A DNA stretch of 64,000 nt. It comes from Raillietiella orientalis. Its lineage: Eukaryota. The position numbers and the translations under genes are program-made. The notes beneath the pieces are model-generated. The model had not been told where the DNA came from, did no database searches, and saw only the letters and a list, made by a program, of their open reading frames with translations. Location of the stretch: the NCBI GenBank assembly GCA_036172245.1, contig JAYWIR010000035.1, positions 1,612,001 to 1,676,000 on the forward strand, written 5' to 3'. Below are positions 8,001 to 30,492 of the stretch, piece after piece. Positions within the stretch are counted from its first letter, which is position 1. Each line of letters starts with the position of its first letter.

Positions 8001-11000
8001 TATACTTAGGCATATTTTACTTTTGGACATTTTTATGGTGCACATGTTGCAGGCGTTTAGTTTTATTAATGTTAAACTGATAAGAGTTCACTCGAGACAT
8101 TCCAAAGTAACTCCCTTTTAAAAATTAAGAGTTTTTTGGGTATGGTTTGAAGATCATTAAGGGAATTTAACTTTCTTTTTGAAAGGATGAAGGATGTATC
8201 GGATTTTTATCCTTTGTAGATGCCAAGAATTTGGATGGATTATTGTGAATTCTTGATGCATCAGAAATGGGTCACAAGAACTAGGCAAACATTTGATCGT
8301 GCATTGCGGTCATTACCAATCACTCAGCATTCTCGAATATGGAACCTGTATCTGCAATTTGTGAAAGATGCTACTGTACCTGAAACTGCAATAAGGGTAT
8401 ATCGCCGGTATTTAAAGGTAGTTTTTTTTTTTTTTTTTATTTTGCGTATTCGTCTATAAATAAATGGTTCTTAGTTATGTCCTGAAAAAGCAGAAGATTA
8501 TGTAGAGTACCTGATCAGCATTCATCATTTGGATGAAGCAGCTATGAAATTAGCATCCATTGTCAATTCTGAAGAATTTGTTTCAACTCATGGGAAATCC
8601 AACCATCAGTTGTGGAATGAACTTTGTGAGTTGATTTCGAAGAATCCACAACATATAAAGTGAGTTGATAATGAAATTGTCATCCACATAAAAGCAAGAG
8701 GTCATTAAATGTTGATGCCATAATTCGAGGAGGACTGAGAAAGTACACCGATCAGTTGGGACATCTTTGGAACTCCTTGGCAGAATATTATATTCGTGCT
8801 GGACTGTTTGAGCGGGTCAGAAATCTATGAAATTTAAAATGTTCAGTAATTGGGATCATTTCAGGCCAGAGATATATATGAAGAAGCTGTGGAAACTGTT
8901 ACTACTGTAAGGGACTTTACTCAGGTCTTTGATGCATATGCTCAGTTTGAAGAGCTCAGTCTTAGTAGGTACATGGAAGATGTTGCTTTAAAAACAAAAC
9001 CTAGTCCTGAAGGTAAAACTAATTTATAAAGTCGTCTGGTAATGGACTTGTGTCTTATAGATGATCTAGAGATTGATCTTCGCTTGTGTCGTTTCGAGAA
9101 TCTAATTGAACGCCGTCCATTACTTCTGAATAGCGTATTGTTGCGCCAGAATCCACATAATGTCCCTGAATGGCACCGGCGTATAAAACTTTTAGAAGGA
9201 AAACCGGAAAAGGTGATGTGATAGCATACACTTGAAGGCATTTCTTTTTTAGATAATTCATACGTTCACAGAAGCAGTGCAAACAGTTGATCCACGACAA
9301 GCTACTGGCAAACTTCATACACTGTGGGTTGCCTTTTCTCGTTTTTATGAAGATAACAAGCAGATAGAGGATGCCAGAATTATTTTTGAAAAAGCTATAC
9401 AGGTTAGAAATTAAGCACTTAAGGTGCATGTGCATGCTAAAGTTTTTAGGTTCCTTATGCCAAAGTTGATGATTTAGCATCTGTATGGTGTGAATGGACT
9501 GAGATGGAGCTTCGCCAAGAGTCAGTTATAAAAATAAAGCAATCAAATTACTTTTTCAAACTAGCAATTGGGAGGAAGCTTTACGGTTGATGCAACGGGC
9601 TGTGACACCTCCTTCTCATAAAGTGGCATATCATGATGAGAAGGAGACAGTGCAAAAACGGGTCCACAAATCTCTCAAAGTGTGGTCCATGTATGCTGAT
9701 TTGGAAGAGAGCTTTGGAACCTTCAAAGTAAGAAGAGTGCAGTTTTGCATTTTCACAGCTGTCTTTTAGACCTGTAAGGCTGCTTATGATCGCATCATTG
9801 ATCTTCGTATTGCAACTCCACAGATCATCATCAATTATGGAATGTTTCTTGAAGAAAACAATTATTTTGAGGAAGCTTTCAAGGTGATTATTCCGCACAG
9901 TGAACATTGTCGATAGCTGTTTTAGGCATATGAAAAAGGTGTTTCGCTCTTCAAATGGCCTAATGTGTATGACATTTGGAATACTTATCTAACCAAATTT
10001 CTTGAAAGGTATGGAGGATCAAAACTGGAGAGAGCTAGAGATCTCTTTGAACAGTGTTTAGAGCACTGCCCTGCAGAGTATGCAAGAAGTATGTTCAGTG
10101 CAACTTCTGATCCCCACTAATGCACATATTAGATTTTTATCTATTATATGCCAAGTTAGAGGAAGAGCATGGCTTAGCACGACATGCTATGGCTGTCTAT
10201 GATCGTGCCACCAGTGCAGTTCCACCAAAAGAACAATTTGAGGTTAAATTTGTAGTATCCATCATCTTTTTTGATGTTACGCTTTCAGATGTTCAGCATC
10301 TATATCAGAAAGGCAGCACAGGTGTATGGTGTAACACGTACACGTGAGATATATGAGAAAGCAATTGAGCAGCTGCCTGATGATAGTGCTCATGAGATGT
10401 GCCTGCGTTTTGCTGATCTAGAACGCAAACTAGGCGAGATCGATCGAGCCCGAGCTATCTACTCACACTGTTCACAAATGTGTGATCCAAGAGTTAGTAC
10501 AGCCGAGTCTAAATGATTGAGATCACTGGTAGGTAATAGGTACGGCCACAATTTTGGCTCACTTGGAAAGAATTCGAGATTCGTCATGGTAATGAAGACA
10601 CTATGAGGGAGATGTTGCGCATCAAAAGGAGTGTTCAAGCTATGTACAACACTCAGGTAAGAATTACATGCTGTTCCTGAATTTTATTCCTTAATGTAGG
10701 TGAACATGATGTCAGCTCAAATGCTCTCATCTGCAGCACAAGCATCTGCTAAGGCTTCAGAAATGGCTGCTGCTAATCAGGATGGCATGAGAGTGTTGGA
10801 AACCAAAGCTGCTTTCTTGTCCAAAGAAGCTGAGAAATCTAGTAAGGTCATGCTCTTCGTTTCTGTTCTTTAATTGCTGGTTCGCAGTCTCACGAAGCAA
10901 CAACATTATGTTTGTAAGAGGTAGCAGTGATCAGAAAGCTGATGAATTGGCAGAACAAGCAAAAGTTCAAAACCCAGCAGAAATCAACATTGAGGAAGAG

Positions 11001-11148
11001 GAAGAAGAATCAGAGCAGCCACAGACAGGTACAAAATTTTGCGATCTTCAGAAAGATTTTATGATCTTATATGATGATAGATATTGAACTGGAAAAGATG
11101 AGCATTCCTTTGGAAGTATTCGGAGGTTTAAAGGCTAAAGATGAATGA
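2059..11148 (+). CDS. XAB2: Pre-mRNA splicing factor SYF1/XAB2 (HAT-repeat NTC subunit), ~838 aa. Exons 2059-2061 (ATG, tentative), 2386-2534, 4685-4808, 8220-8417, 8475-8659, 8701-8815, 8865-9012, 9061-9212, 9253-9402, 9450-9520, 9565-9727, 9770-9883, 9926-10088, 10133-10242, 10289-10492, 10540-10656, 10700-10841, 10888-11028, 11081-11148
   Basis: Manual GT-AG splicing gives a continuous 2517-nt frame. It carries hallmark XAB2 peptides: [111 protein letters not shown]. The start exon is uncertain (alternative ATG at 581). Confidence 0.95.
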
Positions 11149-11253
11149 TCGTTCAACCTATTGATCCTGGCTGTTACTTGACTGGTGTAGTGGGAGAGTG
11201 TACCTCATGACCACTACCAGTTTGATGATGTGTTGCATCGTGACTTAACTAGC

Positions 11254-11259
11254 AATAAA
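11254..11259 (+). terminator. AATAAA polyadenylation signal of XAB2
   Basis: Only AATAAA between the XAB2 stop (11148) and the next ATG (11274). Confidence 0.6.
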
Positions 11260-11273
11260 TTTCAGTTACGAAG

Positions 11274-13540
11274 ATGCTGGAGCGGCCTCAGTTATTTACT
11301 GATCTGGGACCTCTTCCTGTTGGTTGGGAAAGTCAGTTTGATTTGAAAACTGGCAGATAGTAATTATATGCTTTTGTACTGTCCTTACTAACATTTCTTC
11401 ATCTTAGCTATTTTATCAATCATTTTAACAAAACTACAACATGGGACGATCCCCGTTTCCGAGGAATTCTGCAGCCCATACCACCACCTCCATATCAAAA
11501 GGAACCTTGCTTTAGTCCTCCACAGGTGTTATGGACATCTCTATTGTTATGTCCTGCAATCTTCGAAAATGTCTTATGTCCGACATCTTCGAAATTCTTT
11601 CTTCACTTAAAATACTGAATTCATTATCATGCATGCAACGAATCCATCTCGTATTTTGATTTTATTGAACCTTCCAAGCAATTTGTTTGGTTTACTGGCA
11701 AGAATTTGAATTCCCTTACATCACTGTTTTCAAGCACAAATTCGTAATTGATCTGAGTTTTTAGGACCATTCTGGAATTGCATCACCTTCTGCAGCTAGT
11801 CCACAAGATGTCTATGGAACATTACAAAAACATGGTCCTCATTATTTACAGTATCCTTGGGGATCTACCTTTCTATCAGTTTTGCATCCTGGAACATATT
11901 ATATTCTGCAACCAGCTGGTCCATTTTTCTGCAGCAACTGTCAACAATTGTGCTATCCTGGGAGAATAAGCTCTGAAAGCCATATGCATGCAAGTGAACA
12001 GGATTCAGTTCAACTTTGCAGCAGTCCTGTTCCTGACGACCGATCACACTTGGAATCATCAGTGGCTAAACTTCAGTTGTTGTTTCCAGCTACATCATCT
12101 GAACACATACGCAAATTACTTATAAAGTGAGTCTGACGACATATGTCGTTTTCTGACAGGGAATTATGTTGCATGACAGTTCCCTTCTAGTCATATGTAT
12201 GTGCTTAGCCAGAGGCATGCAATTCTGTGACAAATAGTAATACGATGCAGTAGATAATTGTGATCTGTGAACTGGCAACAACTTCAGGTATCTCTATCGG
12301 GAGAATCTTGTCATCAGCGCACTTCAAGTGGAGAAACAACCCATTGCCATGCCCGGACCAAGTGCTACTTCGCCCCCTGCAACATATTTAAAATCCACAG
12401 AATCACTGAATGGAATCACTCCTACATTCCGAGATCCAAGTTCAGGAGCACCTTCTCCTTTTCCTTGTGTTTTTAACATCCATAAGCCACACTCCTCCCC
12501 CAAAATGAAATTGCGCTATTTGAAGACGATTTTTCCGAAAGCAGATGAGATGCTGCTGTTGGATGTGCTTGCAGAATGTGATAACAATGTGCAGTCTGCA
12601 AGTGAAGAGCTTCTGTCCAAAGGGTACTCACGGAAAGCAACACCAATACCATCGGCCAATAGCAGGCAGCTACAGTTGTCTACTGAACCAACTCATGAAA
12701 TGATATCACCTCCGGCTTTGAAGGTTTTATCCCCAGAAGAAAAAGTGCAAAGTAGTTTAGAATAACAAAAGTGCCCAATTACGTAATATCTTGCAGTTCA
12801 AGACCACTTCAGTTCCCGCTTCGAAGACATATCGCCAAGCGTGCTAAAGATGGCACTAGAAAGTGCATGCTATGATGAAGAACGTGCTATCCGCATTATT
12901 CAGGAAATGCAAGAACGGGAGCAGAAATTAGAAGAGAGGATTTGTGCACCCAACTACATTCCCGCCGATAGGTAAGCAAGATGAAAAGTGCCATCACCGA
13001 ATGTAAAACTTCAGAACAATGCCGTTGCCTTCCTCTCCACGTGGTTCTCCGCGTCATAAAGCTGTATATGCTCAAGCTGGTGATTCGGGAATGGAAGGAA
13101 GTGTAGAAGATCAGTCAGTCCCACGATCAACCCATTGTAAACTCAGCAAGAATATTTGTGGGTAAGTATGTGTGTTCATCCGGGGTGATTCTTACCACTT
13201 AAGGTTCAGTGTCTCTTTCGGAACTAATACCACTAAAGACCCAGGGTATTATTTGCAATCTCAGGCCAAAGGAGCAAACAAACAGTATTGGAAGGGCCCG
13301 CAGAAAACTCACCTTCTGTCAGTGAATCCATTTCGTTTTTTCATAATCTCTCGTTCTAGCAGTAACTATTTCTTGTGGAGCGGACCCGATGCCACCAATC
13401 ATGTTGGACCCAACCCGTCCCTAGCCAAAGGATCAACCTGCTTACACACCTACTCTTATCAGTCGCTGGCCAAAGGTCCCCTTCCGAATCATTGCCGAGG
13501 CCCCTCTAAACATCAAATAAAAGACTCGGTACCATGCTGA
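11274..13540 (+). CDS. Uncharacterised protein with N-terminal WW domain, PPxY motif, 2-3 CUE/UBA-like helical domains and C-terminal Gly-Pro repeats, ~548 aa. Exons 11274-11359, 11408-11525, 11765-12126, 12288-12751, 12797-12971, 13015-13161, 13204-13317, 13360-13540
   Basis: Spliced frame of 1647 nt is open. WW: [35 protein letters not shown]. CUE-like: VAKLQLLFPATSSEHIRKLL, LRYLKTIFPKADEMLLLDVLAECDNNVQSASEELL, FEDISPSVLKMALESACYDEERAIRII. AATAAA at 13913. Confidence 0.85.
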
Positions 13541-16500
13541 AAACCACGAACCCTCAGACCTTACTGTAAGGTCAGTAACAACACTGCCTATTGTTTGTGC
13601 AATCGTTTTGCCAGAAAGGTCTTTGCGGCGTCTATTGAATAGTGAAACAAATAGTTTGATGTTTTCGTAAAGTAGGCGTTTTTGTTTCTAGGGGAGGGGG
13701 GGAAGAACCCCAAACTAGAACCATCGTGATCATGAGCTGTGTATGGAAATTTATATAAAATTTGTGTTTCCAATACCAAGGAAATTCTCGAAGAATCCTC
13801 CACTCCGGACCCAAAGAGGAATCGCATCATCTTTGAAAAACCAGACTGAAAGTTCAGTCATGCAGTTCAGCCTTGTTTTTATGTGGTTGTATGATTTAAA
13901 TACTCGATCGCCAATAAAGCAAAATTCATGGGTCGACTATGCGCATTCTTGAAATAATTCCATGTTTTTTTTTTAAACAAAAAAAAAAAGGAAAGATAAA
14001 AGTTTTCACTTAATTCCTGATATCTTTACAAAACCTAGAAGCAAAGCGCTATCCTGGAATTGGGTTATTTTTCTCTCGTTTTCAAGGGAAGGGTGATTAC
14101 ATAACATAATATTTACTAATTATTATGTTTTTCCGATGAGAAGTTTTTGTTCATGTGCAGCAGCAATGTGAGCGAATTCGGTTGCAGCTATCGATTTCAG
14201 CCCCTCATATTATACTGATCTTCATACAATAATTGTCTGCATTAACTGTCAAAGGTAAACAGTGAAAAAAAAACAGGATTGCCAAAGCTTCTGAAACAAA
14301 TTCGAAACATATGAACAAAACTCTGAAATGTAACGTCGAGCAAGCATACAAGTGAAAAGTTTCTTCAGTTTGCACGAGAAGGCATACTGGCAACAGCCCT
14401 GACGTGAAACTTCATCTGCACACTTTCTTTACAGCTAGGTTAGATTTGTTTTCTTTCTTACTAGTACCATAGATGGAATGTTTTCATGTAAAAGGAAAAA
14501 GAAAAAATATTCCATAGCTTCGGTTTTCCATTTATTTTAATATTTGACGTACGAAAATCTACTGGAACCACATTTCACCTTTATCGCTTTACTGCTGATC
14601 TGGCCTGAGATGTGGATGGACTCGTTCGGTTCTTCCATTCCAGGAACAAATTTCCAAGATCTACACTTTTCCATCTTTCGGAAATTTAAGATTTCGTCGA
14701 GGCTCCACTGAATGCATGCGTCCTGGATCACTTCGAAATTTTAATTTCTTGTTCGCCGACGTTCACGTTTTCCGACAACCGTCTTTTCACAACGGCCACC
14801 TACCGCCACCGTCCCGCTCAGTGGGATTCTTCCGATGGACCTCTCCGAAATCAAAACTCCAATTTCCAGAGATTATGAATCCAAATGGGTGCTTCTTCGC
14901 CTTGCTTTTCGAACGCTTGGAGCGTGAAGAGCTCCGCATTTTATGCGGAACGCAACTACACACACTGTACAGTGTGTATATCTCCAAGGAGATAGTGGTT
15001 TGAATCGGCTCTAGGGCAAGCTGTGCCACTCGACCCAAGATGCTTGGCCTCGAGGCGCGCGCGCGAGACGGACTCGGAAGCGAAACCCATGCATTCGGCT
15101 GCCGGACGTCTTCGAAGCGTGGAATCCAAAGGCAAGAAGAATGTTACGAACGACTTGAAAATAAGGAATGATGTCGATGGCTGCGTGTTGTGCCCTTCAA
15201 ACAGTCTGTTTAAAACTTTCGTGTCGAATGCGCCTTTAAAGTCGTAGCTGATGCACCTGGAAAGCCTTTGAACTATTTGTTTCTGCTGCTGGCGATCCCA
15301 ATCGCGATCGCTGCCGAACACACTTAAAAACAGAGCTGGTACGCTAACGAAACTGATGATGCACATGATTTTTATCCCTTACTTAATGGCCACAGTGGGT
15401 TTTATTTCCAACCGCCAAGCAGCCTGCTGCACTTTTCCCTCGTGGACCCGCTGCAACCCATTCCTCTGGAATGCCGAGCGCGCGAACTGCTTGCAGCTCA
15501 CCGCTGCTAGGCACCGATTTTCTTGCAAGTGGTCGGTGAAAAGTCCGACGTCATCAAAAGTCATCCAGGTCCGCCTTCACCTTGACATCCGTCGTTGCGT
15601 TTCACAAAGCTTTTCGAAAAACGCAACTCTACTGCCCCTTGCATTCGTTCGAAGGGGGAAACGGCCGGCGGAAAACAAACGCACGCGGCTCCTAGGGGCG
15701 AGGTATTTCCTCATGTGTGAAATGCATACAAAAAAATTTTTCTTCTCTTTCTCTTTTGCAAGTTTAAGCCACAAGGCCGCTGATGGTTTGGCTCGGTGCT
15801 CCTACACGCCCTACGCGCCCAACATGATGGGAATGCTCTAACGTAACCCATGATGCACTGTTTACGAAACATTTGCCTACACAACCTATTAAAATATGAA
15901 AAAAATGGCGGCATTCGGCCCCGGTGTGTTCCAATTTTCACCAACACTTGATGGTGACGTTATTAAGCAGACAACACTGCACATCTGAAGCATTACCAAA
16001 AGCCAGCCACTTCTGGGTGCACCATACCTCAGCCAGCCACTTTGATCTTAGCCAAAAGGCTGAGAAGCGATACTTCACCACCAGAAGCACTACGTATGTA
16101 TCGAACAAGTCTTACGTACACAAAAAATAAAGTGGTAATACAATATCGAGACCTCCTTATGTTTCGCATACGAAACAGCTTTTACGGCGAAAACTGCGAT
16201 CAACTATAACATTATCTAAACTGCACGGAATGGTATTTACATCAGGTGCTGTTACTTATAATGAGAAAACACCCGACGCCTTCAAACTTTTGGGGGACCT
16301 AGGGGACTCTCTGAGAATTTTCTCGTCTAATATTTACAAAATAACAGAGACGATGTGCTTTACTTCCAACATGCAACAAGTAACATCACCACCACCACTC
16401 TGGGAATAAAAACTCAAATTCGGTCTTACTACGAAATGAGAAAAAAATATCCAAAAGAGTTTCCTTTCTGATATTCAGAACACATAACAGCATGAATGCA

Positions 16501-16748
16501 ATTCATTTTTTTTCCTCCACTGTTTAAAATTCTCCCCACGTTTGAAAATAATAGTTCTCAGTTTTTATAAAATAAGATAATGTACATAACTGCATATATT
16601 TCAGATAATTTTCATTTGATAGCAATTAAATATATAATCTGTAACCGAACTTTCACTACTTACTCACAGGGAATTTGACAATTCAATATGATTTAAAATT
16701 TTGCTTTGTATTTTAATTTTTTGAATGATGACGGAAATCCACTTATAA

Positions 16749-19700
16749 CTAACTCGTCCTGCAGGCTACTGGGGGAATTGAGTCATCCCCATTATTAGGA
16801 AGAGAAGTGACTCTGTAACCCATATTCAAGAGCATAACCTCTAGAGGATCAGAGTTCATTCGTTTCTGATTAGCAGATGCAGCATCATCCTGATCCATAA
16901 TCTCTCTGTCATTGGAACGCCCATCCTAGAGAAGGAAAAAAAAAATTTCATCTACAGAGCTGGAAGTTAACATTTGAATTACTTCTGGTAAGGGGCTCCA
17001 AAGGCGAACTACTGTATCAATGCCACTTGTAGCAAGCAGACAGGAAGAAGGATGTGGTTGAAGGCAGTTTACTATAGAATCATCTCCTCTCAAAATACGT
17101 ACAATATTTGTGGTGTCAGCATCCCATATGAAAAAAGAACCATCATCTGAACCTGCAACAATAAACTGACTGCACGCGGTTGCACATTCCATCAACTACC
17201 TCACCAACCTTCCTAAAAAGTTTGCTTCTTTAATGTCTGTGGTGGTGTTGCAATGACCCCAGTAACGTAAGTGATAATCAGCTGCTTGAGCCCTCCACAC
17301 CTTCTCTTGCTTGGAGATCTGACACAGTTGTCGATGATTGGGCACATTGGATTCTGTTTCTGTATCTTCTTCTGTTTCTATTTTTTCCCACCAAAAAAGT
17401 TGTCCTTTAATTTGCAAACCACATACCAGAATCATTGTTTTTTTGCAAATTAGCAGCCAAGACATCTTTTTCTAGAGCTTGAAAAGCACGAGACCCAACT
17501 TGCTCCGGGAATTTTTTTCGGAAAGCCTGCAAGCAGTCGGAAGCTTCTTTTGTCCATTGCAATTCATGTAGACAACGAGCCAATCGGAAATGCGCCTTAT
17601 AGTAATTAGGATCAAGCTGTAAGGCCCGGATGCAATCTCGCATGGCGGAATAAATGTCCCCATCCCTAAAACAAAAATGTCCAGATGAAAACCCTGTTTC
17701 CTTACACTGATTGTACCAATTTTAACACACTCCATGCTCTAACGGAACTTATCTGAAACTTCGAGAAAATACACACTTCAGTATGTAAGAGAGTACCTGA
17801 AATAATAATAAAAAATAGTACTCACCATCCTCTCTTCATCAGGGTAGCAGCTCGGTTGCTGTATAACACAGCAGCTGTAGGCTGCAAACACAAGGCTTCA
17901 TTGTACAAGCTTACTGCCAAAGTATAATTCTGCTGTGAAAAATGGCCATTAGCCTGTGACTTCAAAAGTTCTACACTTGAGGGAAACCTAACTGACTCTT
18001 TAACATGATCAGACTGATGCCCAGATGAAGTATTATTTACACTGTGATTGGTTTTGGCGCACAGTCCATTGCCTGTATAATTTTAATATTGTAAATGTCA
18101 CTACTATAGCTAACCTCTAACAAAACCATTAACAAGAGGAATTGGAACATCAAATGCCTGCGGACGCTGGTAATTATTTATGTCAAAGAGATAAATTTGT
18201 TCCCCTCCTAAATTGACTAACAAAGTATTTCCATTTGGTCCAAATGTCACATATGTTGCAGCTAGTGTACGGAACTTTCTACGGTATTCCATCTGTTTCA
18301 GTGGCAAGTGACCTAAATATAAGGGTACACATAGGTAAATGACTTTTCTTGCTAATTCTAACCTGCCACAAAATATTGCACACATTCATCTGGAATGCTG
18401 TTGTCATCCTCATATTCCAGTGTGTAAGAAGAATTTCCGTTTTCTCTTTTCTTTGATGTACTTATTTGGGACTCCTATTTTAGCAGTCTTACAAAAGCAC
18501 CAATATACACACTCCCTCCCACCTTGATAGAACGAGTCCTTATCATGCGCATATCATAAAGACGGACATAAGGATCATTTGCTCCCACAGCCATAAGTTC
18601 TGGACGATAAGGATTGACAGCTAAGCATTTACATTCAGCATTTCTGCCAATATAATGCTGCAAATTGACCAAAATGTTAATGCATTCTGATGAGCAAACA
18701 TGTTTGGTTCTCATATCAAATTGCCTTTCATTAATAAAGTAAATGAAGATTAGTCATTCCACAATCAAAAATTCTTACAGAACTTTGCCATCTTCACCAG
18801 CACTCCAAAACATGTATGGAAGATGAGGAGCAGTGGATAATCTTTTAACTCTATTTGAATGGCAGTGGCAAACTTGGATGGTTTCTTGAGCTGCCAAATC
18901 ATAAATACAAATCTTGCAGTCAGCAGCACAGGTGACAAGGGTTTTATCTTGTGAATTTGGCAAAAACTGTAACATAAATCACAATGATTTCTTTATGCAT
19001 TCCACAAACTATCTTACTTTAACTGAGAATATATTTCCATCATGTCCTGTTTGGAAAGAATGTAGCTTCCGATGTCTAAATGGATCCCACAGAATAACAT
19101 GTAAATCATCAGAACCAGATGCCAATAAACTGAAGGGTATTGCAACATTTTAATAACACATTTAGAAAACTTATATCTTTATATTTTCAATTCACAAGCA
19201 ATTTCTGTACACCACATAAAATCTTAAGCACTGAACCAATCAGTAAACAAATAACTAAAACTCCAAGTTGAAAAGACTATTACAAACTAAAGTATGGAAG
19301 ATAACATTCAACTGTTTAAACCATTTTCATAAATCTCAATAGTATTATTGATACTCACACAACAAAAAAATGATGCATGCGAACCAAACAAAAAAACACC
19401 CATGCACACTTTTCGGGTAAGCATGCTTACTTTCGAACCAAATGTATGTTATTTCTGACACTTCACTATTCTTTACCATGCACACACCATACAGTTAAAC
19501 AGAAATGCAATAACAACCGAAAGTTCTTTTCGAACAATATACCACAGTAATCTTGTTGAAACAATAGCTAACTGGAACTATATCTAAGCATTTCCAGGTT
19601 TTCAGATGTACTTGTAATAGTATTAATAAATGATACTCAAAACAAGTCATTTATTTAAAGTTCAAAATAATAAAGGCATTAAAAAATGTTTCTTGGCATG

Positions 19701-20630
19701 TAGTAATGCAATTGTGTTCAGTACACCCTTGAAGATTTAAAAAGTATGCAAGGAACAAACTTATATGAACTAATCAAAATTAATTCTTACTGAACTTTCA
19801 ATTATTTTAATGGGAGTATTCAATGGGAATCGGGCTGATGAGAACCAGATCGCATATAAATTACTTCCATGCATAGAACGCCACACAGTGATACAAAAGC
19901 ATGACTGGAAAAATGAGCAGTCCATGTTATTAAAAGAAGCAGTAGATGATGCATCACTTGTGCCTTTTAATTTGCAATTTTAACAATCTGATGTATCATT
20001 CACTTTAAAAATAAAAAAAAAAAAAACATATTTTACTATATTGAGAAATGTAAATACATCAATCCTCCTCAAAAGAGCACAATGACGGCTAAAAAAAAGT
20101 GATTACTTACGTGCCTGATTCATTCCACTCTAGGCAATTAATACATCCATTGTGGCCTTCCAATTCATATTCCAAACCAATTCTTGATATTAAGTTTCCA
20201 GTTACATGTTGTTGCTTTTCAAAATTTTTATTGAAGTCTCCCTATTTAAAGTTTTCACATTCAAAATTGCAAATACATAAGACAAAGTTACATAAGCAAT
20301 GAGGGTAATAATAAACGGCAGCAAAACATTGAACGAAGGCACAAAGAAATGAAACAACTTTTGTCAAACACACAATAACTAATCAATAATTGTTAAGGAC
20401 ACGAAATCCTAGAATGCCAGTGTGTATTTTCAAACCCAGAATGACTGTGTGTATTCGCGTACAAGGAAAAACGCTGCTGCTCCCACTACATGTAATAAAT
20501 GTTATCACAGAACACAAAGCAGAAACGGGTCAGGTTCACGAGGTGTACAAAATGATTCTTGGGAGGGACTCACGTTTATAATCCTCTGCTGATACTTGCA
20601 TACAATGTTTTTATTTCTCCGATAGGTCAT
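16749..20630 (-). CDS. WDTC1: WD and tetratricopeptide repeats protein 1 (WDTC1/adipose, DCAF9), ~672 aa. Exons 20630-20574, 20241-20111, 19129-19018, 18966-18779, 18724-18523, 18474-18363, 18312-18115, 18072-17826, 17665-17427, 17377-17209, 17169-16983, 16925-16749
   Basis: Spliced frame of 2019 nt is open. It contains LEGHNGCINCLEWN, LLASGSDD, GHDGNIFSVKF, AVGANDPYVRLYD, LLVNLGGEQIYLFD, a TPR block (YSNRAATLMKRGWDGDIYSAMRDC, KAHFRLARCL), GHCNTTTDIKEANF, GSDDGSFFIW, VNCLQPHP and NQKRMNSDPLEVMLLNMGY. Confidence 0.95.
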
Positions 20631-20819
20631 GATGGATCCATCGTCCAACAAACGATAGCACGAACCTTAAAACATTACAATGAAAAAATTGCAAGGTTAA
20701 CCAATTCCAACAAATATATGCGTTTCTGCAAGTATCAAGTAAAAGAAGAAGAAGAAGGAAAGGGGGGAAAAAAAAGGGGGGGGGGAGGGAAAGGAACACA
20801 TTGGATGTATCTCGAGGAT

Positions 20820-21700
20820 GCACCGTTTGCTCACACCTTCCACGCACAGCACGCACATGCACAGACGGAGAGCTCCGCGCGCTGCTGCTGCTGCACGCCG
20901 AGCTGATTGTTGGCTCGCAGCTCCGTGGTCTGCGGCGGCGGCCCCACGGGACACCCGGCTGGCCAGGGAGACCCCTCCTGCCCAGAGAGACCTCCCGCTT
21001 ACGGATGTAAATCGGGTGCACGCTGGGCGGGTAAACAAAAACAAACCCAGAGATAACCAGATCCGTCTCCCGGGGAAAACGACCAACCAACCCAACTGGG
21101 CTCTGCTTTGCTGCGACTGATCACGGAAGGATCGGACCGACGAACGGAAAAAGAACAGAGACGACGACCAGAGAGGAAGCTGGATGTGTTTATCCCCTCC
21201 CCTCCCTTCCCTTCCCCCTCTCCCCATCAAGCTCCTTCGGCATGTGCCCAACGAGGATGCTCGGGAAAACCCACAGACCCGCTGGCGACTGGATTTCGTT
21301 TCCATCCGGATTGCACGAAACCAACTAAAATCAAAAGAACGCAGAAGCGTTAAATCACAGATGGTGGAAGTTTAATTCTTCAATGATGAAGAAATTTCAA
21401 GAGATCATTTCTACACACATATATACGTTCGCAGAATCGAAATGACTTTGCATGCGAACTAATTTGCAAGTAGCAAAGAGTTTCACTCGGGGAAGATCTT
21501 TCTGATGGAAACTCAAAATAGCCGCGCGAATCAATTCCTGACTTCCGGTTGTTTTAAACAACCCCCCCAAAAAAAAACAAAAAACAAAAAGGACTTCGAA
21601 ACAACGCTCGTCCCAAATAAAGAAAGTGCCTTTGTTTCAAGTGACAGAGTTCCGACTCGGCGACAGAATAGAAGATGAGTGAAGACCGGAAGTCACTTAA
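20820..21700 (-). promoter_or_regulatory. CpG island and promoter region of WDTC1, with a non-coding first exon (donor at 21002) and two ETS-type CCGGAAGT motifs (21541-21548, 21686-21693)
   Basis: Local GC/CpG peak in an AT-rich background. Minus-strand donor GTAAGC at 21002 and acceptor TTTTAAG at 20666 upstream of the ATG. The motifs were read directly; their function is inferred. Confidence 0.55.
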
Positions 21701-23076
21701 ATTCGTGAGCCGGATGAGTCTCCCTCATCGTGCGCAGCGTCTACATGAATATCTAACTGAAGAGTTTTTTACTCTTTTAGTTAAGACCCAGAAAATGGAA
21801 AAGCGCCGTGATAAATATCATGCATCAAAGTGTCGCATCCGTTTTCGCGGGCAATTTCAAGCGGAAAGAAGGGAAAAAAATGGAGATTTCTTGGAATCTA
21901 TCAATCTGCAGCAATATCTGATAATTATTCTTGGTTATACCGAAAATTGAGTTACATTCTCTTTTTTTTTGGATCGAATAAGCTAACTTGGGATTCCCAT
22001 TCTGGTGAATAACAACAAAAGTAAAATATCCGATACGCACTCACGAGAACGACTTCATTTACACTGTAAAACATGAAATTTCCTCCATCTTGGGACAACA
22101 GGTTCAAACTAGCACACCTTGAGCAGGTGCTCGTGTTTCTCAGTATTTTTGAAAACTGAGACAAAAGCTGGACTTTTGGTTGTCTAGAAAGTCTATGGTT
22201 TCGCAGATTCCAACTGCTCAGCCAGAGTAAATCCCGTATATACTTATTACGGTCTTGAGGGAACCCTTCGTAGAAAGATGCAGAAAAAATGCTGCTCAAA
22301 GATCACGCAACAGTATTAATTTCTGTTACACCATCCTATATTAGCTTAGGACATTCTAGAATTAATATAAATTCTAGAACAATGGATGTGATTGATTTTG
22401 TTGCCAATGGCAATATAGGCATAATTGATTACTTATATACAAAATATAGTAAGTATGTCCTATAGCCACCACTATCAGTGGCCCAAATTGAATACACAAA
22501 TCTATTTTATGAAGTTTCCTAATTACCATAAATGGTACCATCCAATAAATGGCAAATCTGATCGTTTATATATTTTCGATATGTTCACGTTCCAATAACA
22601 TGCTCAACGGGGAGTTATTGAATTTTTTATGTACGAAAGATAAGAATAATAGGAATCAAGTCTCAATACCAGAGTTTTCTTTTATGAGTTGCTCTGCTAT
22701 TTATGTCATGCATCTGCATATGCCGAGCATTCTAATGAGTACAACTGCATTTGCACTCAACGGCTGGAGCATTCTAAAGAAAAGAGTTGGTAATGACTAA
22801 GACTGCAAACACTTCATTTCCGCAAACTGCAGAACTCACTTTATGCAAGAATGACATGCCTCCTCTTGAATCCAATCTCAATCCAATCCTCGATTGAAAG
22901 TCACTACATATGGTACAGGAGTTTGCCGAAAATTGTAACTAAATCAATGTTAAACCTCTTGGCTAAGAATATCTGATTTCTAACATAGCATCGGGATATG
23001 GAGGATCGGGGGTCATCGGAAATAACATCACCTCCAAAGATGACAGTCCATCATAAGGATGCTTCTATTTTAGGAA

Positions 23077-23243
23077 TTAGAACGACAACAAATCGGAAGA
23101 ATGAAATTTAAACCAGAGAATCGTTTTAAAAGTTCATAAATATGGAGATAAGTTGCTGTTGTTCCACCTATTAAACTATTGGAACCAATCTCCGGTTTCT
23201 TTCTGGTTTAAATCTCATTTTCCTGATTTATTATAGTTTTGAA
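23077..23243. repeat. Imperfect inverted repeat (~40-bp arms), MITE/foldback-like
   Basis: AATGAAATTTAAACCAGA (23100-23117) versus TCTGGTTTAAATCTCATT (23202-23219) gives 17/18 complementary, with weaker pairing extending outward. Confidence 0.55.
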
Positions 23244-23629
23244 CTAATACTTAAATGAGACTCAGAATTTGCTTCTCATGAAACCAATGCAAAATCCAAT
23301 AATGTTAAGATCGTTAAAAACCATTCGAGATCACGGAGTCCTTACGTGAGACAAGCAGTTGGTGATAAGTTCTTGACGAATAGTCATCTGCAATCACCTC
23401 CGTATACGTGGTTTGTGAACGGTAATTTCAAAATCAGATTCAAACACACTCCCAACACTCAGTCAACACTAATAGTTCCTGCAAACGATGAATTCTTTCG
23501 ATGGGTGCTTCAGCAGAGCATCCATGCCAACTGAAAAGGGTAATGTTGGTAGGCATCTTAAATTTCTGCGCATATGCAATGATGGGCTGATTTTTTTCCA
23601 GGAATAAAGGAGTGGGGAGTTACCCCTCC

Positions 23630-24270
23630 TGTCGTGCAATGGAGAACGGATCCCCCTCACTGGGGGACCCTCCAGTTTCAAGATGGATCAGGAACTCACG
23701 GGCACCTCTCCAGTTGTTCATTCGGGCGTGGCAACGGTGGTCGTTTAAGACGGGAGGCCCATAATGAAGGCCAGAACAATGGGAGTCGACCTTCGGGTCC
23801 TTCCAGGAATCAAGGAGTGAGGAGTTCCCCTCCGGTCGTACAACGGAGAGCGGACCCCTCCTGTTGCGGGAGGAATCCTCCGAGTCGTCGCCTCTTCACA
23901 GAGTGCAAAGAAGCAAGCGAGAGCGATTCCCTGCGGGAAGCTGCAGCGCCCCTTCTGAGTTTCGGAAGCGTCCCTTCGGGGTTCTCTTCAGAGGAGTGAA
24001 CAGGAGCGCTTCCCTTGCGAGTTCCCTCCGGAGAAGAAATTCCTACTAACGGATCCTTACCGAGTTCCCTTCGGAGAAGAAAAAATGGAGAAGACCCCCC
24101 CGTTCCGGGGTGCTCCCTCCGGAGAGAATGAGGAAGGAGATTCGCTTCGGAGACAACCAGGGTGGGAGATGCGATAACCCCTGGAGGGAGGAGCCCTCCA
24201 CAAGCGTGAGAGGAACGGACTCCGAGTGTTCCTGTATTCATAGGGCGGGACCCTCCTTCCGGGTGCCCCC
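23630..24270 (-). mobile_element. Diverged copy of the LTR-like repeat found at 35881-36410
   Basis: GC-rich island sharing ordered blocks with 35987-36410: ATTCGGGCG..GGTGG, CTTCCAGGA, TTCCCCTCCGGT, GAGTGCAA, GGAAGCG.CCCTTC.GGGTTCTC, TCTTCAGAGGAG, AGAGAATGAGGAAGGAGA, CAAGCGTG..GAACGGA, TAGGGCGG. Confidence 0.65.
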
Positions 24271-27200
24271 TATCTTGAAGAATAACACGCACCCTCCGCG
24301 GGTGGCGTGGAACAGTGTTGAAGAGTCACGTGCGCCGCAAGGCACGCGACCGGCTCTTGAGGTACTTGGCTTACCAAAACAAAGAAAACCTGCAAAAAAA
24401 TGCTGGAAGGGAAAAAACAGCGAAGACAGAAATGAACCCAAAAGGATTTCCATCATCCCCAGATTTCATATTTTCTTGGCACAGTGGATCTGAAAGGGAA
24501 GCTGCTGAAAGTTTCACCTGTCAGAGATTTTGATGCTGATGATCAAGAACACGTTTTCGAGGGAGACCCTTGTTGGCAGTGCTGGGTTACTGGAAGAAAC
24601 GGAGGTAGTTTTCTTTTCAGCTTGTCACCTTAAAGGGTTATGTTTTGTCCATTCACGTTACATTGTTCCACTTGCGATCCTCTTGAAGAGAAACAATCGG
24701 ACAAACGAGATTTATGCTCATTCTTCACATGGTCTCGGATTTCTTTAAAAGGCTCAGTGGCTCTCTTTTCCGGGATGATCTTTCTTCTCAGTTCAGAAAG
24801 GTACGAAAAGAGAAACGAAGGCCATCTGTAGGATGATAAAGCTGAGTGAGAAATATCGTACCGTGACATCTGCAAAGGTGCAGGATGGAAGTTTTCCTAT
24901 GTAGGTTTTTCTTCCGCTTCCAACCACTCCCTGACAATCCAAAAATTCTACTCATTTTGACCCTCGACGGACTCGCATTTTGTCGGGAACGCTCAGAAAT
25001 CGTCCGGTTTTTTATCAAGAGATGGAGACTTAGCTGCTGGACAGGTCGAGTCGGTGTCCCCATTGCTCTCAGGGTTTTTCAATTCTTTCCCAGTGACTTC
25101 TCTGCAGCTTCACGGGAGACCTTTGAAACAACGCAGCGCACGCATTCTCGCATGCCTTTCATTCCGAAGGCTCGAATCACAACAATGGTGTCGTAGTCCT
25201 CTCTAGGGCCACCGCCATGTCTGTCCCGCCTACTTTCAGCGCAGGCGCAACGAAGGCAAACTCACAAAGCATTACAAGAATAAAGAAAACCAAGTAAGCA
25301 GCCAGGGCAAGCCTACGGGTTGCCAGATTACTTATTCTGCAGATGAGGTACACACTCCTCTTTAGTACCTTGACATTGGATTAGAAGTATACGTAATTCT
25401 CATTGTTTGCCAGCACTTATCTGACCAGACATTTCAATTTTTCGGTGGAAAGAAAACGGTCCTTTTCGAACTTATCGAATAACTGATCACTCGGGGAATG
25501 CCTTCTGAAATCGAAAACATGATGAGGGACCTTTTGCTTTCAAAGGAATCGGTCATCTGCCAATATGCTAGATATGATAATTAATTCACTATTACGATAA
25601 CATCGTGGTTGATGAGCAGCTCGAAAACTTCATCATCTCGAAGTAAAAAATGTTGGAAAAGTCACAGTTAACACTACGAACATGCGGCACGAACTGAACT
25701 GTTTAACTTTCTCTGTGCTTCGTGATTATTCAAAAAAGACATTGCTGAAATTCCAAAACCTTCGCATCGTACATAAGGGAATCTCATAAGATCATTTGGG
25801 TTGCAAGCAGGAAAAATATATCCATGATTGCATGTGTATATTTCTATTATATGCGCATTCATTAAGTGGAGGAGATTAATCTGAGATACAGAACAATTAA
25901 TGCATCCAAAAGAGCTTTGTACTAAATCTGAATGTTTCTATATTGGAAAATAGTTTTCCAATATAGAAACATTATTAGAGTTAGGATATATATAGTATCT
26001 TCAAAAAAGAAAGAAACACAGAACAAACGGAATCAAAATATTTCATTTAAGTTTTTTCCTCCGTCGCTTCGAATTAATAAAATAAAGATTCGCATATACT
26101 TCAAATTCATGCCCCCTTTTTTAAGTCAATGGTATCTATGGTTCTATAGACTTAAAAAAATGATTAGAATCATTTGAAACGCTGGTTACAACTGAACAAC
26201 CGATTCGATTCGTTTGGATTTGCGTTGATTTTATAGATTTCTAAAGACAAGCTGTATAAATTTACTATTTCTGATGTATTTCTAAATGCTCAAAAGCAGA
26301 AATAGATTTCAATATGATAAGACAAATCGCACTGAATAGTTCGCTACGAGTGCATCTTAGTATAACCGGTGAAAAAAAAATGCATCCTCATAGGTTATTC
26401 ATTTTATTTATTTTAAAAATGCTGCGCAGATTTTCTGACATTACGTAAGCTTCTTTCTCGTCGGTACATGCTAATGATTTCATCACAATTATCTCATAGT
26501 ATTTGTCTTTTTTTATTCTTTATGTCAACAAGATTTAAGAAATTAGCTTTTTTGAATGACAAATTCGGAGCAGAGTTAGTCATCACATACTCTCTGTGAG
26601 TAATCTGCATCTTGATCTTGATGATGTGCGTATTTTTCATTATTTCCAAATACAACAGATAATTATGAAATCTGCTAAATCTAAAAGATCAGCTTTGAGA
26701 TGTGTATACTATCAAAATCCCAGAATCTACAAGAACAGCAATGAAAAATTTTGTTTCTTGGTTGAATACAACACTCTTCTTCGTCTTGCTATAATGAATT
26801 TAAATATATTAGGTTGTCAGATAATGCCTATCGGAGCAAAACCTTACTGTTTGATACTACCATAAAATAACGTTTCTTAACCGTTTACGAAGGCATGTAT
26901 TACATGGCAATTAAAGCTGTTATAATGATGAAAGGCTATCATCAGAAACTCGTAATCTCACTAAATATCTGGGTGCACTCCAAACGAGGGAATAGAATCG
27001 CAGCTCTCTTTTTACTTAGTCTCAGTATAGTGTTTACCACTGTGGAAACTTTCTGGAGATTTTCTCTATGGGGACAAAAAACACTTCAATAAAACAAGCT
27101 GAACACTGGTTTTTGCTCATTAATTCATTTATAAAAAATAGTACGCTAAGTATGCATGTTCAAACAGATTTGTGTTTCTATTGCATCACATAATTATTGT

Positions 27201-27694
27201 GACAACTAAAAAATAAGTCAACGAAAAATACTATCAAACTAAAAATGGCACGAGTAAAAATACATAAATTAGTCCTTTTCTATTCAGGGTCTTGTTTTCA
27301 ATTCATAATTAAAAACATAAAACAAAATGTTGAGTTTTTAGTATAGAAAGTCTTGTATTATAACTTCAAGATTGGTAGAAAATTCAAATGTATCATAATA
27401 CTTTGAATTTTTCGGAAATATTTTTCGTAAAATGATTCGTAAAAATAAAGAAAAGATGAAAACCGATGCATCTAGCACTAATAGCCTATTTTTAAGTTTA
27501 CCTAGTTTGTCAAGAATTCTTTTTACTTTTATATCATTTTTAGGATACTTTAAACAGACTATAAACAATACTGATAGTACCAGAATTGAGATAGAATATA
27601 AAATTTAATTTATTGCATAAATCGGAGAAAGGAACCTGGCAATACTGGTCTGTCTTCAAAAGATATCTGGTAGGGATTGTGGTGGTGGTTTTTA

Positions 27695-30492
27695 ATGGAA
27701 GCTTCCAGCGCCGGAAAACCACAAAAAATGCCGAAAGTGGCCAAAGTAAGTCTGCAGCTCCTATTTTTGGTCATTTTTTTCGTTGTAGCAGATGATGTAT
27801 AATTTAAAAAGAATGTACTTTAAATTGAAAAAGTTGATTAGCACATGATTAAGAGGCAAAACTCTTAACTCAGTTTGTGAATAGATGTGGGTCTGTTTCA
27901 TAAAGCTATACAGAACTATAAAAAGTAGTACTGGTGTTAACCAAAAGTCTTATATCCATGTTGAGTGCATGCTAATGATGCCATTCTTTCAGGTCAAAAA
28001 TAAAGCACCAGCAGAAATCCAAATAACTGCAGAGCAGTTATTGAGGGAGGCCAAAGAAAGGGATTTGGAAATTCTACCACCTGTAAGTACCCGGTAGATA
28101 AAACGACTCATGAAGTTAGGAATTAGCAATAAAGAAATGTATTGCATTATATGTGTTCTTTATGTGCAATCATATGAGTTCAGTTGTGAAATGTAATTCT
28201 AGCCTCCAAAACAAAAAATCTCAGATCCTGAGGAACTTGATGATTACCGATTAAGAAAAAGAAAACAATTTGAAGATAATATACGAAAAAATCGTACAAG
28301 TATAAGTAACTGGATCAAATATGCCCAGTGGGAAGAAAGTCAAAGGGAGATTCAAAGGTTAATATTTATCATATGGAACAACACCATTTTATTGCAGTTA
28401 TCCTCGTGTAGAACCCGTTCAGTTTATGAAAGAGCTTTAGACGTCGATCATCGAAATATCACATTATGGCTGAAATACACAGAAATGGAAATGAAGAACA
28501 AGCAAATCAATCATGCCAGGAACTTATGGGATCGGGCAGTGACCATCTTGCCAAGAGCAAATCAGTTCTGGTACAAATACACCTATATGGAAGAAATGCT
28601 TGGCAACATAGCTGGTATCTTATGGATTGAGTAATTTCTGTGTACTAATTACATGAAGAATAGGGGCAAGACAGGTGTATGAGCGGTGGATGGAATGGGA
28701 ACCTCATGAACAAGCTTGGCAAACTTACATTAATTTTGAATTGAGGTATAAGGAGCTAGATCGTGCTCGAGCTATTTATCGACGGTTTGTTATGGTTCAC
28801 CCAGATGCCAAAAACTGGATTAAATGGGCTAGGTAGAATATTGAGTAAAAAGCTTCATGTTGAATCGATTTAGGTTTGAAGAACGACATTCTTACATCCA
28901 GAGTGCTCGCCGCATATTGGAACAAGCCATTGAATTTTTCGGGGAAGAGCAGTTGCAAGAGAAACTATTTATTGAGTTTGCTAAATTTGAGGAACGTCAG
29001 CGTGAGGTAAAAAAACTGGAATGAGTGCAACATGCTGTAGAAAAACTGATCAGCATGACCGAGTACGGGTAATCTACCGCTATGCCTTGGATCGATTGCC
29101 TCGAGAAAGATGTCAGGATATTTATCGTTGTTACAGTATTCATGAGAAGAAGTATGGAGATCGTGGCCTTATTGAGAGTGTTATTGTCAGCAAACGACGC
29201 TTTCAGTATGAAGAGGTAAACAGCAGGCATAATTTACCAGACAGTTAATTTTTTGAAGTTAATCTTAGGAGTTGAAAGCTAATCCTCATAACTATGATGC
29301 GTGGTTTGATTTCTTGAGGCTCTTGGAGGCTGAAGGAGATGTTGGTGTTGTCCGAGAGACTTATGAACGAGCTATTGCTAATGTCCCACTCACAGCTGTA
29401 CGTGTAGCATATTCATTTAGCCTTTCTTATATGCAACTCAGGAAAAACGCCATTGGCGTCGGTATATTTATCTGTGGATCAAATATGCATTGTATGAAGA
29501 GCTAGATGTAGGAGATAAAAACCAAACTCGAGAAGTGTATTTAGCATGCCTAAAGCTTATTCCACACAAAAGGTTCACTTTTGCTAAAGTGTGGCTGCTA
29601 GCAGCTCAGCAGGAAGTGCGTCAAAAAAATCTGTTATCAGCACGTAAATTGCTGGTGAGCATAAACTGCATAAATCCTTCCAAAAGAAAAAAAAAAACCC
29701 CTAGGGAACTGCAATTGGGATGTGCCCTAAAGACAAACTATTTCGTGGCTATATTGACCTGGAGATTCAGCTTAGGGAATTTGATCGTGTTCGTCGCCTC
29801 TATGAGAAATTCCTAGAATTCTGCCCAGAAAATTGCACTACATGGATGAGATTTGCAGAACTTGAATCTCTGTTAGGTGATGTGGATCGAGCTAGGGCCA
29901 TATATGAGCTGGCAGTGGGACAGCCACGTCTGGACATGCCTGAAGTTGTTTGGAAAGCATATTTAGATCTGGAAATGGAACAGGAGCAACCAGAGCGTGT
30001 TAGGGATTTGTATGAACGTTTGTTGCAACGCACACAGCATGTGAAAGTGTGGATGAGCTATGCCAAATTTGAGGTTTCTCAAGGGTGTGTGGATCGAGCC
30101 CGGAAAGTGTTTGAGCGTGCTAACCACGTTCTCCGTGATTCTGACAAGAAAGAAGAACGTGTCATTATTCTTGAGAGTCTGAAAGAGTTCGAGGATGAAC
30201 ATGGTGATCAAGAATCTCGCCAGCGAATATGTGCCTTGCTTCCACAACGTATTAAGAAGCGACGACGTATACAAACAAATGATGGGGTAAGAACACTATA
30301 AGACTTTCATGCTGGTAATTTGATGCTTCCTTTTAATCTACTTAGACCGATGCTGGATGGGAAGAATACTTTGATTATATCTTCCCAGAAGATGAAGCTT
30401 CCAGACCTAATCTGAAGCTTTTAGCAATGGCCAAAATGTGGAAAAAACAGCAAGAAATCGGGAATGTTGAACAAAAAGAAAGTGATTCCTGA
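27695..30492 (+). CDS. CRNKL1: Crooked neck-like pre-mRNA splicing factor (CRNKL1/SYF3/CLF1), ~677 aa. Exons 27695-27745, 27993-28082, 28203-28357, 28412-28614, 28664-28832, 28874-29006, 29054-29215, 29269-29397, 29442-29654, 29705-30286, 30346-30492
   Basis: Spliced frame of 2034 nt is open. It contains [113 protein letters not shown] and [20 protein letters not shown] at 30942. Confidence 0.97.

Follow-up and report, generated by a model that had tools for sequence, protein, structure and literature searches.

We analysed a 64,000-nucleotide (nt) stretch of DNA (contig JAYWIR010000035.1, positions 1,612,001 to 1,676,000; hereafter the window) with regard to the very short introns of four neighbouring genes, XAB2/SYF1, a WW-domain gene, WDTC1 and CRNKL1/CLF1. 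The window sequence is eukaryotic and contains no N. All four genes lie in its AT-rich part, the first 34 kilobases (kb), across which the guanine plus cytosine (GC) content is 29-45% in steps of 2 kb. An initial annotation had reported 36 tiny introns of 39-59 nt here, and this count was right: 35 are supported (15 in XAB2, 4 in the WW-domain gene, 8 in WDTC1 and 8 in CRNKL1) and form the pooled set used below, and the one at 13318-13359 is optional as the 36th (Table 1).

Intron models of the four genes

Orthologues were identified by searches with single-exon translations. The CRNKL1 exon gave 2275 matches, the best named ones at 60-68% identity; the WDTC1 exon gave 14, with insects and amphioxus at 64-66%; and the XAB2 exon gave 998, with identity of at most 87% over one exon. 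The top identity of the whole spliced proteins was 72-74% (many arthropods), and vertebrates reached about 71%.

Introns were called with a protein-to-genome spliced aligner, which accepts no introns other than GT/GC-AG ones of 25 nt or more, applies a flat penalty and is guided by protein similarity. The aligner is therefore blind to the pyrimidine tract, the branch point and any preferred length. The references were P0285, P0305, P0293 and P0365 for XAB2 (chosen over earlier homologues of about 40% identity), P0127, P0128, P0125 and P0129 for WDTC1, and P0006, P0026 and P0024 for CRNKL1. Each junction was then ranked by swapping the intron for every in-frame, stop-free GT/GC-AG alternative up to 36 nt away and scoring the local peptide against the homologues.

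All four XAB2 homologues yielded one model, with 15 short introns (40-57 nt) and one of 3411 nt, and all three CRNKL1 homologues yielded one model, with 8 short introns (41-59 nt) and one of 120 nt. In WDTC1, 8 short introns were found and the exact borders were fixed in 4; the four homologues agreed on 20110-19130, 19017-18967, 18778-18725, 18362-18313 and 16982-16926 and on the acceptor at 17170, and diverged at the four remaining sites. The junction of the model ranked first in 14 of 15 cases in XAB2, 9 of 9 in CRNKL1 and 4 of the 8 short introns of WDTC1. The spliced reading frames were free of stop codons over 746 amino acids in XAB2 (from 8220), 660 in CRNKL1 and 609 in WDTC1. The model of the WW-domain gene was obtained from open frames, apart from the WW profile, whose positions 1-15 fall in exon 1 and whose positions 17-31 fall in exon 2; a CUE match in this gene was below the Pfam threshold.

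Retention would bring an in-frame stop codon from 29 of the 35 short introns and a frame shift from 5 more, and only 28358-28411 reads through. This intron is the sole member of the pooled set that is both stop-free and a multiple of 3 in length, and its retention would give CRNKL1 18 extra in-frame residues. The optional intron 13318-13359 is likewise stop-free with a length that is a multiple of 3, and it is thus not required by the frame. Altogether, the borders of 27 introns are unique, those of 4 are approximate and 4-5 are placed by frame only. On this evidence from homology and frame, we regard the short introns as confirmed to be real. The earlier statement that nearly all of them are pinned by frame or protein conservation stands for XAB2, CRNKL1, the four WW-gene introns that the reading frame requires and four of the eight WDTC1 introns, whereas the borders of the other four in WDTC1 are open.

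Table 1. Genes and introns in the window. Homologues, references giving the intron; rank, place of the junction among in-frame alternatives, with scores where given; the pyrimidine fraction is that at -18..-4.
Feature	Position	Strand	Length (nt)	Homologues	Rank	Remarks
XAB2/SYF1 gene, part seen	4683..11148	+				about residues 61-853 of homologues; stop codon 11146-11148
XAB2 long intron	4809-8219	+	3411			near 5′ end
XAB2 intron	8418..8474	+	57	4/4	1 of 20	phase 0; T17 run right after donor
XAB2 intron	8660..8700	+	41	4/4	1	phase 2; 3′ end ..AAAAGCAAGAG (G at -3)
XAB2 intron	8816..8864	+	49	4/4	1	
XAB2 intron	9013..9060	+	48	4/4	1	
XAB2 intron	9213..9252	+	40	4/4	1 (828 vs 503)	donor GTGATG
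XAB2 intron	9403..9449	+	47	4/4	1	
XAB2 intron	9521..9564	+	44	4/4	1	
XAB2 intron	9728..9769	+	42	4/4	1	skips internal TTTCACAG ending 9758
XAB2 intron	9884..9925	+	42	4/4	1	
XAB2 intron	10089..10132	+	44	4/4	1	CTAAT with A at -13
XAB2 intron	10243..10288	+	46	4/4	1	donor GTTAAA
XAB2 intron	10493..10539	+	47	4/4	1 (975 vs 931)	3′ end ..GGTAGGTAATAG
XAB2 intron	10657..10699	+	43	4/4	1	
XAB2 intron	10842..10887	+	46	4/4	2	6 points below GC-donor alternative; weakly conserved stretch
XAB2 intron	11029..11080	+	52	4/4	1	3′ end ..ATGATGATAG; pyrimidine fraction 0.47
WW-domain gene	11274..13537	+				ATG 11274; 3′ end not settled
WW-gene intron	11360..11407	+	48			contains TACTAAC; cuts WW domain exactly between profile positions 15 and 17
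WW-gene longer intron	11526-11764	+	239			open frames
WW-gene longer intron	12127-12287	+	161			open frames
WW-gene intron	12752..12796	+	45			frame only; in-frame stops on retention
WW-gene intron	12972..13014	+	43			frame only
WW-gene intron	13162..13203	+	42			frame only
Candidate fifth WW-gene intron	13318..13359	+	42			GTCAGT...TTCTAG
WDTC1 gene, part seen	16752..20241	-				spliced alignment to 4 homologues; 609-aa open spliced frame
WDTC1 longer intron	20110-19130	-	981			spliced alignment
WDTC1 intron	18967..19017	-	51	4/4	1	
WDTC1 intron	18725..18778	-	54	4/4	1	acceptor AAG
WDTC1 intron	18475..18522	-	~48	disagree	5	borders not fixed
WDTC1 intron	18313..18362	-	50	4/4	1	
WDTC1 intron	18073..18114	-	42 or 54			54 nt with donor 18126; donor not fixed
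WDTC1 longer intron	17825-17666	-	160			spliced alignment
WDTC1 intron	17378..17426	-	49			3′ end ..GGTGGGAAAAAATAG; donor constant, acceptor open
WDTC1 intron	17170..17208	-	39 or 30	acceptor 4/4		30 nt with donor 17199; donor open (830 vs 822)
WDTC1 intron	16926..16982	-	57	4/4	1	only long pyrimidine tract of set (17 nt)
CRNKL1/CLF1 gene, conserved part	27993..30489	+		3/3		identical models; 660-aa open spliced frame
CRNKL1 longer intron	28083-28202	+	120			
CRNKL1 intron	28358..28411	+	54	3/3	1 (697 vs 562)	skips internal TTTTATTGCAG ending 28397
CRNKL1 intron	28615..28663	+	49	3/3	1	TACTAAT with A at -16; 3′ end ..ATGAAGAATAG
CRNKL1 intron	28833..28873	+	41	3/3	1	donor GTAGAA
CRNKL1 intron	29007..29053	+	47	3/3	1	3′ end ..AAAAACTGATCAG; skips TGTAG ending 29040
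CRNKL1 intron	29216..29268	+	53	3/3	1	
CRNKL1 intron	29398..29441	+	44	3/3	1	2 points above GC-donor alternative
CRNKL1 intron	29655..29704	+	50	3/3	1	3′ end A11CCCCTAG; pyrimidine fraction 0.27
CRNKL1 intron	30287..30345	+	59	3/3	1	
RhoGEF short intron	45295-45240	-	56			exons colinear with Pfam RhoGEF profile 1-50, 56-96, 115-149
RhoGEF short intron	45122-45038	-	85			as above
RhoGEF short intron	44886-44826	-	61			as above

Splice-site signals of the short introns

The short introns have a mean length of 47.2 nt (SD, standard deviation, 5.1; n = 35), and every internal exon (n = 30; 71-582 nt, median 162) is longer than the introns. Their GC content is 33%, compared with 42% for the exons, and there was no deficit of lengths that are multiples of 3 (14 of 35). 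All 35 begin with GT and end with AG. The donors follow a moderate GTAAGW consensus (A at +3 in 21/35, A at +4 in 25/35, G at +5 in 21/35, G at exon position -1 in 23/35). At the acceptor, the pyrimidine of YAG, present at -3 in 32 of 35, is the sole strongly constrained position.

The pyrimidine fraction is 0.56 at -18..-4 and 0.48 at +7..+21 (Wilcoxon P = 0.026, n = 35), and position by position from -4 to -20 it is about that of the intron interior (0.53). It falls below 0.5 at -18..-4 in 12 introns and to 0.4 or less in 8, and an uninterrupted run of at least 8 pyrimidines within the last 20 nt occurs in only 4. The initial annotation had singled out six introns as lacking a tract (8660-8700, 10493-10539, 11029-11080, 17426-17378, 28615-28663 and 29007-29053), and the six 3′ ends that it quoted are all present, as are the donors GTGATG (9213), GTAGAA (28833) and GTTAAA (10243) and the AGs ending at 9758, 28397 and 29040. 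The fraction is 0.40 in 8660-8700 and in 10493-10539, and 0.33 in 28615-28663. The weak tract is a property of the whole class of 35 introns and not of a few outliers.

AG dinucleotides are 2.2-fold depleted in the last 16 nt (12 of 490 positions, against 46 of 848 further upstream; P = 0.012), the pattern expected if selection removes acceptors that would be met too early beyond the branch point. Fifteen AGs lie within 20 nt upstream of the acceptors used. When 3′ sites were scored with a leave-one-out matrix built from the short introns themselves, 7 of the 15 outscored the AG that is used, and 4 of these 7 would produce introns of 32-35 nt, below the shortest seen (39 nt). It had been proposed that better-looking upstream acceptors are skipped at 9758, 28397 and 29040. 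This is so at 28397 (5.9, against 2.0 for the used AG) and at 29040 (3.6 against 1.2), but the AG at 9758 scores lower than the one used (4.1 against 6.1). Use of these three AGs would add 11 nt (9758), 14 nt (28397) and 13 nt (29040), and they are thus out of frame and excluded by frame alone.

Some of the purine-rich acceptors might be artefacts of the gene models, being either unused or one of several alternatives. The intron 17426-17378 has four in-frame acceptors of equal standing (17378, 17372, 17369 and 17366, scoring 170-175), and the homologues picked 17378, 17369 or 17354. This acceptor lies within an acidic, purine-rich, low-complexity linker, however, and the alternatives are just as purine-rich. 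In XAB2, the in-frame acceptor 8694 is slightly better than 8700 as a 3′ site (1.0 vs -0.4), whereas the homologues favour 8700 (722 vs 671). The four open WDTC1 borders and the introns of the WW-domain gene are not fixed by homology. In contrast, the junctions of XAB2 and CRNKL1, which hold five of the six flagged acceptors, are the best among the in-frame options, with the homologues unanimous, and at four of these five the AGs within 20 nt upstream shift the frame or score worse. For example, in 10493-10539 a skipped TAG 7 nt upstream of the acceptor is out of frame and the in-frame AG (+18 nt) has a lower score in the homologue comparison and in the 3′ site matrix alike, and 11029-11080 has no AG within 20 nt upstream of its acceptor. 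We therefore consider it improbable that artefacts of this kind account even in part for the purine-rich 3′ ends.

Recognition of the short introns

We conclude that the short introns are ordinary U2-type GT-AG introns of an ultra-short (minimal) class, most likely recognised by intron definition (probability about 0.8). At a total length of about 47 nt, the branch point would sit some 10-18 nt from the 3′ end, as work in flies and mammals suggests, and this would leave no room for a tract. The acceptor would then be the first usable AG met by scanning downstream of the branch point, and, where two AGs lie close together, published work suggests that the one preceded by a pyrimidine would win. 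Canonical splicing factors would be sufficient for these steps. The earlier suggestion that the 3′ site may be chosen by distance or by the branch point fits the near absence of a tract, the depletion of AG and the skipped options of 32-35 nt; it is plausible and already known. The modified U2AF/SF1/SPF45 system that was proposed with it is unsupported, and unnecessary for anything seen here.

Several points weigh against this conclusion. Three of the seven better-scoring skipped AGs would give introns that are still 40-44 nt long, so that a minimum length alone is no explanation. A branch-point motif was not found above chance (yTnAy in 21 of 35 introns vs 20.4 in shuffled sequences, yTrAy in 11 vs 11.9; the power is low at n = 35), and the branch points are conjectural. 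Nor are weak tracts accompanied by a stronger donor (3.67 vs 3.65 matches of 6) or by G at exon position +1 (6/12 vs 11/23). Further, the introns were ranked with an additive model, trained for each gene on the remaining three, that combined matrices for donor and acceptor with interior composition and a prior on length. Each gene offered 200-395 candidate GT..AG pairs; 27 of the 35 real introns came within the top 31, and the other 8 ranked 33-70, suggesting that some information used by the cell is not captured; the six flagged introns ranked 11, 17, 33, 54, 55 and 58. Finally, the junctions are predicted from homology and frame, and the sample is 35 introns of four neighbouring genes, not a genome-wide set.

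The near absence of a tract signal across the whole class, with no compensating signal found, is also what would be expected in a lineage with changed 3′ splice-site machinery, in which U2AF65 was lost, diverged or was replaced by a bridge of the SPF45/RBM17 type and tract-independent recognition became the default. In addition, according to Fukumura et al. (2021, PMC8363638), U2AF-dependent splicing is efficient only with 8 or more consecutive pyrimidines, and such a run is missing from 31 of the 35 introns. However, flies, as described in the fly studies cited below, show the same pattern with standard machinery, and the weak, significant 3′ pyrimidine bias (P = 0.026) persists in the present introns.

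Other introns of the contig argue in the same direction. In the GC-rich half of the window a single gene was recognised, a minus-strand gene for a RhoGEF (DH-PH), and its three short introns are 74-77% pyrimidine throughout and 0.73-0.80 at -18..-4. In the AT-rich genes, the fraction at -18..-4 is 0.67-0.73 for three of the longer introns (3411, 981 and 160 nt) and 0.47-0.60 for the other three (120, 161 and 239 nt). Provided that the contig is not chimeric, tract-rich short introns are thus present in the same genome. A lineage-wide change of the machinery is accordingly unlikely, in our view.

The RhoGEF introns are C/T-rich along their full length, unlike the introns of the AT-rich genes 15 kb away, and intron composition follows local base composition. 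XAB2 and WDTC1, whose introns are otherwise of about 47 nt, each also contain a single long one towards the 5′ end (3411 nt and 981 nt).

Since five of the six flagged introns lie in genes for spliceosome subunits, XAB2 and CRNKL1, we also considered whether the weakest introns are deliberately inefficient sensors, whose retention, followed by messenger RNA decay, would feed back on the expression of these two splicing-factor genes. Retention would place an in-frame stop inside the intron in four of the five and, for 11029-11080, shift the frame to a stop just downstream; and the eight lowest-ranked introns include four in XAB2 and two in CRNKL1. However, 23 of the 35 introns belong to these two genes, and the enrichment is therefore not significant; equally weak introns also occur in WDTC1. 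We regard such sensors as very improbable.

A wider picture would be that of a probably crustacean genome in which about 47 nt is the default intron length, AT-rich regions pick the 3′ site with neither tract nor branch motif, and C/T-rich introns are kept in GC-rich regions. A single small genome would then combine two architectures, perhaps with different early factors (U2AF65 or an SPF45-like bridge), and roughly one intron in four would rely on further information. We hold this combination to be speculative and doubtful.

The short introns have a practical consequence: gene finders for this genome should accept introns of 39-59 nt with purine-rich acceptors and should not reward pyrimidine tracts in AT-rich DNA. 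Beyond annotation the significance is small. If the pattern were genome-wide, it would offer a convenient natural system for studying 3′ splice-site choice with a nearly uninformative tract and branch motif; this question has already been opened in flies and human short introns, and the window makes nothing newly testable.

Genomic setting and known systems

A quick maximum-likelihood tree of 36 XAB2 proteins placed the XAB2 of the window inside an arthropod clade, with a Shimodaira-Hasegawa-like approximate likelihood ratio test (SH-aLRT) support of 99. Within this clade it provisionally adjoins barnacle and Daphnia (support 90 in the same quick tree). A search of metagenome loci with the CRNKL1 exon, from which 80 loci were kept, gave no close relative, the top identity being 68%.

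XAB2 (4683-11148) and CRNKL1 (27993-30489) lie on one strand with about 17 kb between them, and both code for HAT-repeat components of the spliceosome complex associated with Prp19; their proximity could reflect either chance or conserved linkage. The Pfam family HAT_Syf1_CNRKL1_N matches the XAB2 exon at 4617-4853, and residues 1-60 or so of XAB2, which belong upstream of 4683, were not located. The upstream XAB2 exon was the only Pfam match above threshold among 48 + 148 + 17 open frames outside the four genes; the matches to CUE, IN_DBD_C, BORCS8 and CASTOR1 were all below threshold and were set aside. The intergenic stretches 13540-16750 and 20300-27900 (3-7 kb each) contain GC patches of 41-45% and many open frames, which gave no Pfam match above threshold.

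An abrupt rise in GC content, from 33-43% to 60-66%, occurs at about 34.4-34.7 kb (34400-34700) and could mark either a real compositional boundary or an assembly join. In the GC-rich half (34.4-60 kb), 148 open frames of at least 95 amino acids had no Pfam match. Rfam and transfer RNA scans of the window gave no match, self-BLAST of the window at E<=1e-10 revealed no internal repeats, and no tandem repeats were found in 20-64 kb.

The XAB2 stop codon (11146-11148) is separated from the ATG of the WW-domain gene (11274) by 125 nt. An AATAAA at 11254-11259 is directly followed by TTTCAG at 11260-11265, 8 nt ahead of this ATG. The layout resembles an operon with a putative trans-splice acceptor. 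Spliced-leader trans-splicing is known from some crustaceans; no spliced-leader gene was found in the window by the Rfam scan.

In U12-type introns, the pyrimidine tract is missing and the branch point lies close to the 3′ site. The present introns resemble them in the missing tract and differ in donors and branch sites. None of the 35 has an RTATCC donor, the nearest being GTATCTTATG at 28615, and CCTTRAY occurs in one intron only (10657-10699), which carries a normal GTAAGA donor; U12-type introns were rejected on these grounds.

The genes of Caenorhabditis elegans are closely spaced, and their short introns, with a modal length near 47 nt and a UUUUCAG acceptor recognised by U2AF, have no strong consensus at the branch point. 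The introns described here share with them the modal length of about 47 nt and the lack of a strong branch-point consensus, and the gene spacing is likewise close. In contrast to the worm, in which the U-run at -7..-4 is strongly conserved, T occurs here in 17-18 of 35 introns at -4..-6 and in 9 of 35 at -7.

The closest likeness is to Drosophila introns of 40-59 nt, which are described as having GT-AG ends, longer exons on either side, weak 3′ sites and a weak or absent tract. Pai et al. (2017, PMC5762160) report for ultra-short fly introns (40-50 nt) that the 3′ sites are substantially weaker and often lack a tract and that the branch motif lies at -14. The minimum distances given there, about 35 nt from donor to branch point and about 15 nt from branch point to acceptor, mean that a 45-nt intron can hardly accommodate a tract; the branch point is thus forced close to the 3′ end, and recognition is by intron definition. 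Further, purines are enriched upstream of the acceptor in fly introns of 48-59 nt (Weir et al., 2006, PMC1431713). The acceptor is described as being found by scanning from the branch point, with AGs too near the branch point failing and a low pyrimidine content tolerated (PMC10946897). Two differences from these accounts of the fly stand out: the fly mode is 60-70 nt, with 40-50 nt forming a slower-spliced tail, whereas about 47 nt is typical in the four genes; and a CTAAT-like branch motif is detectable in flies but not above chance in our small sample of 35.

The human introns that depend on SPF45/RBM17 are similar in being shorter than 100 nt with truncated pyrimidine tracts, and their recognition is proposed to bypass the binding of U2AF65 to RNA (PMC8363638). 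As presented in that report, however, they are a minority subset defined by knock-down, whereas the present introns were characterised from sequence. Thus, the short introns of the window are an instance of a class already described, with one difference of degree, namely that about 47 nt appears to be their usual size, as in nematodes.

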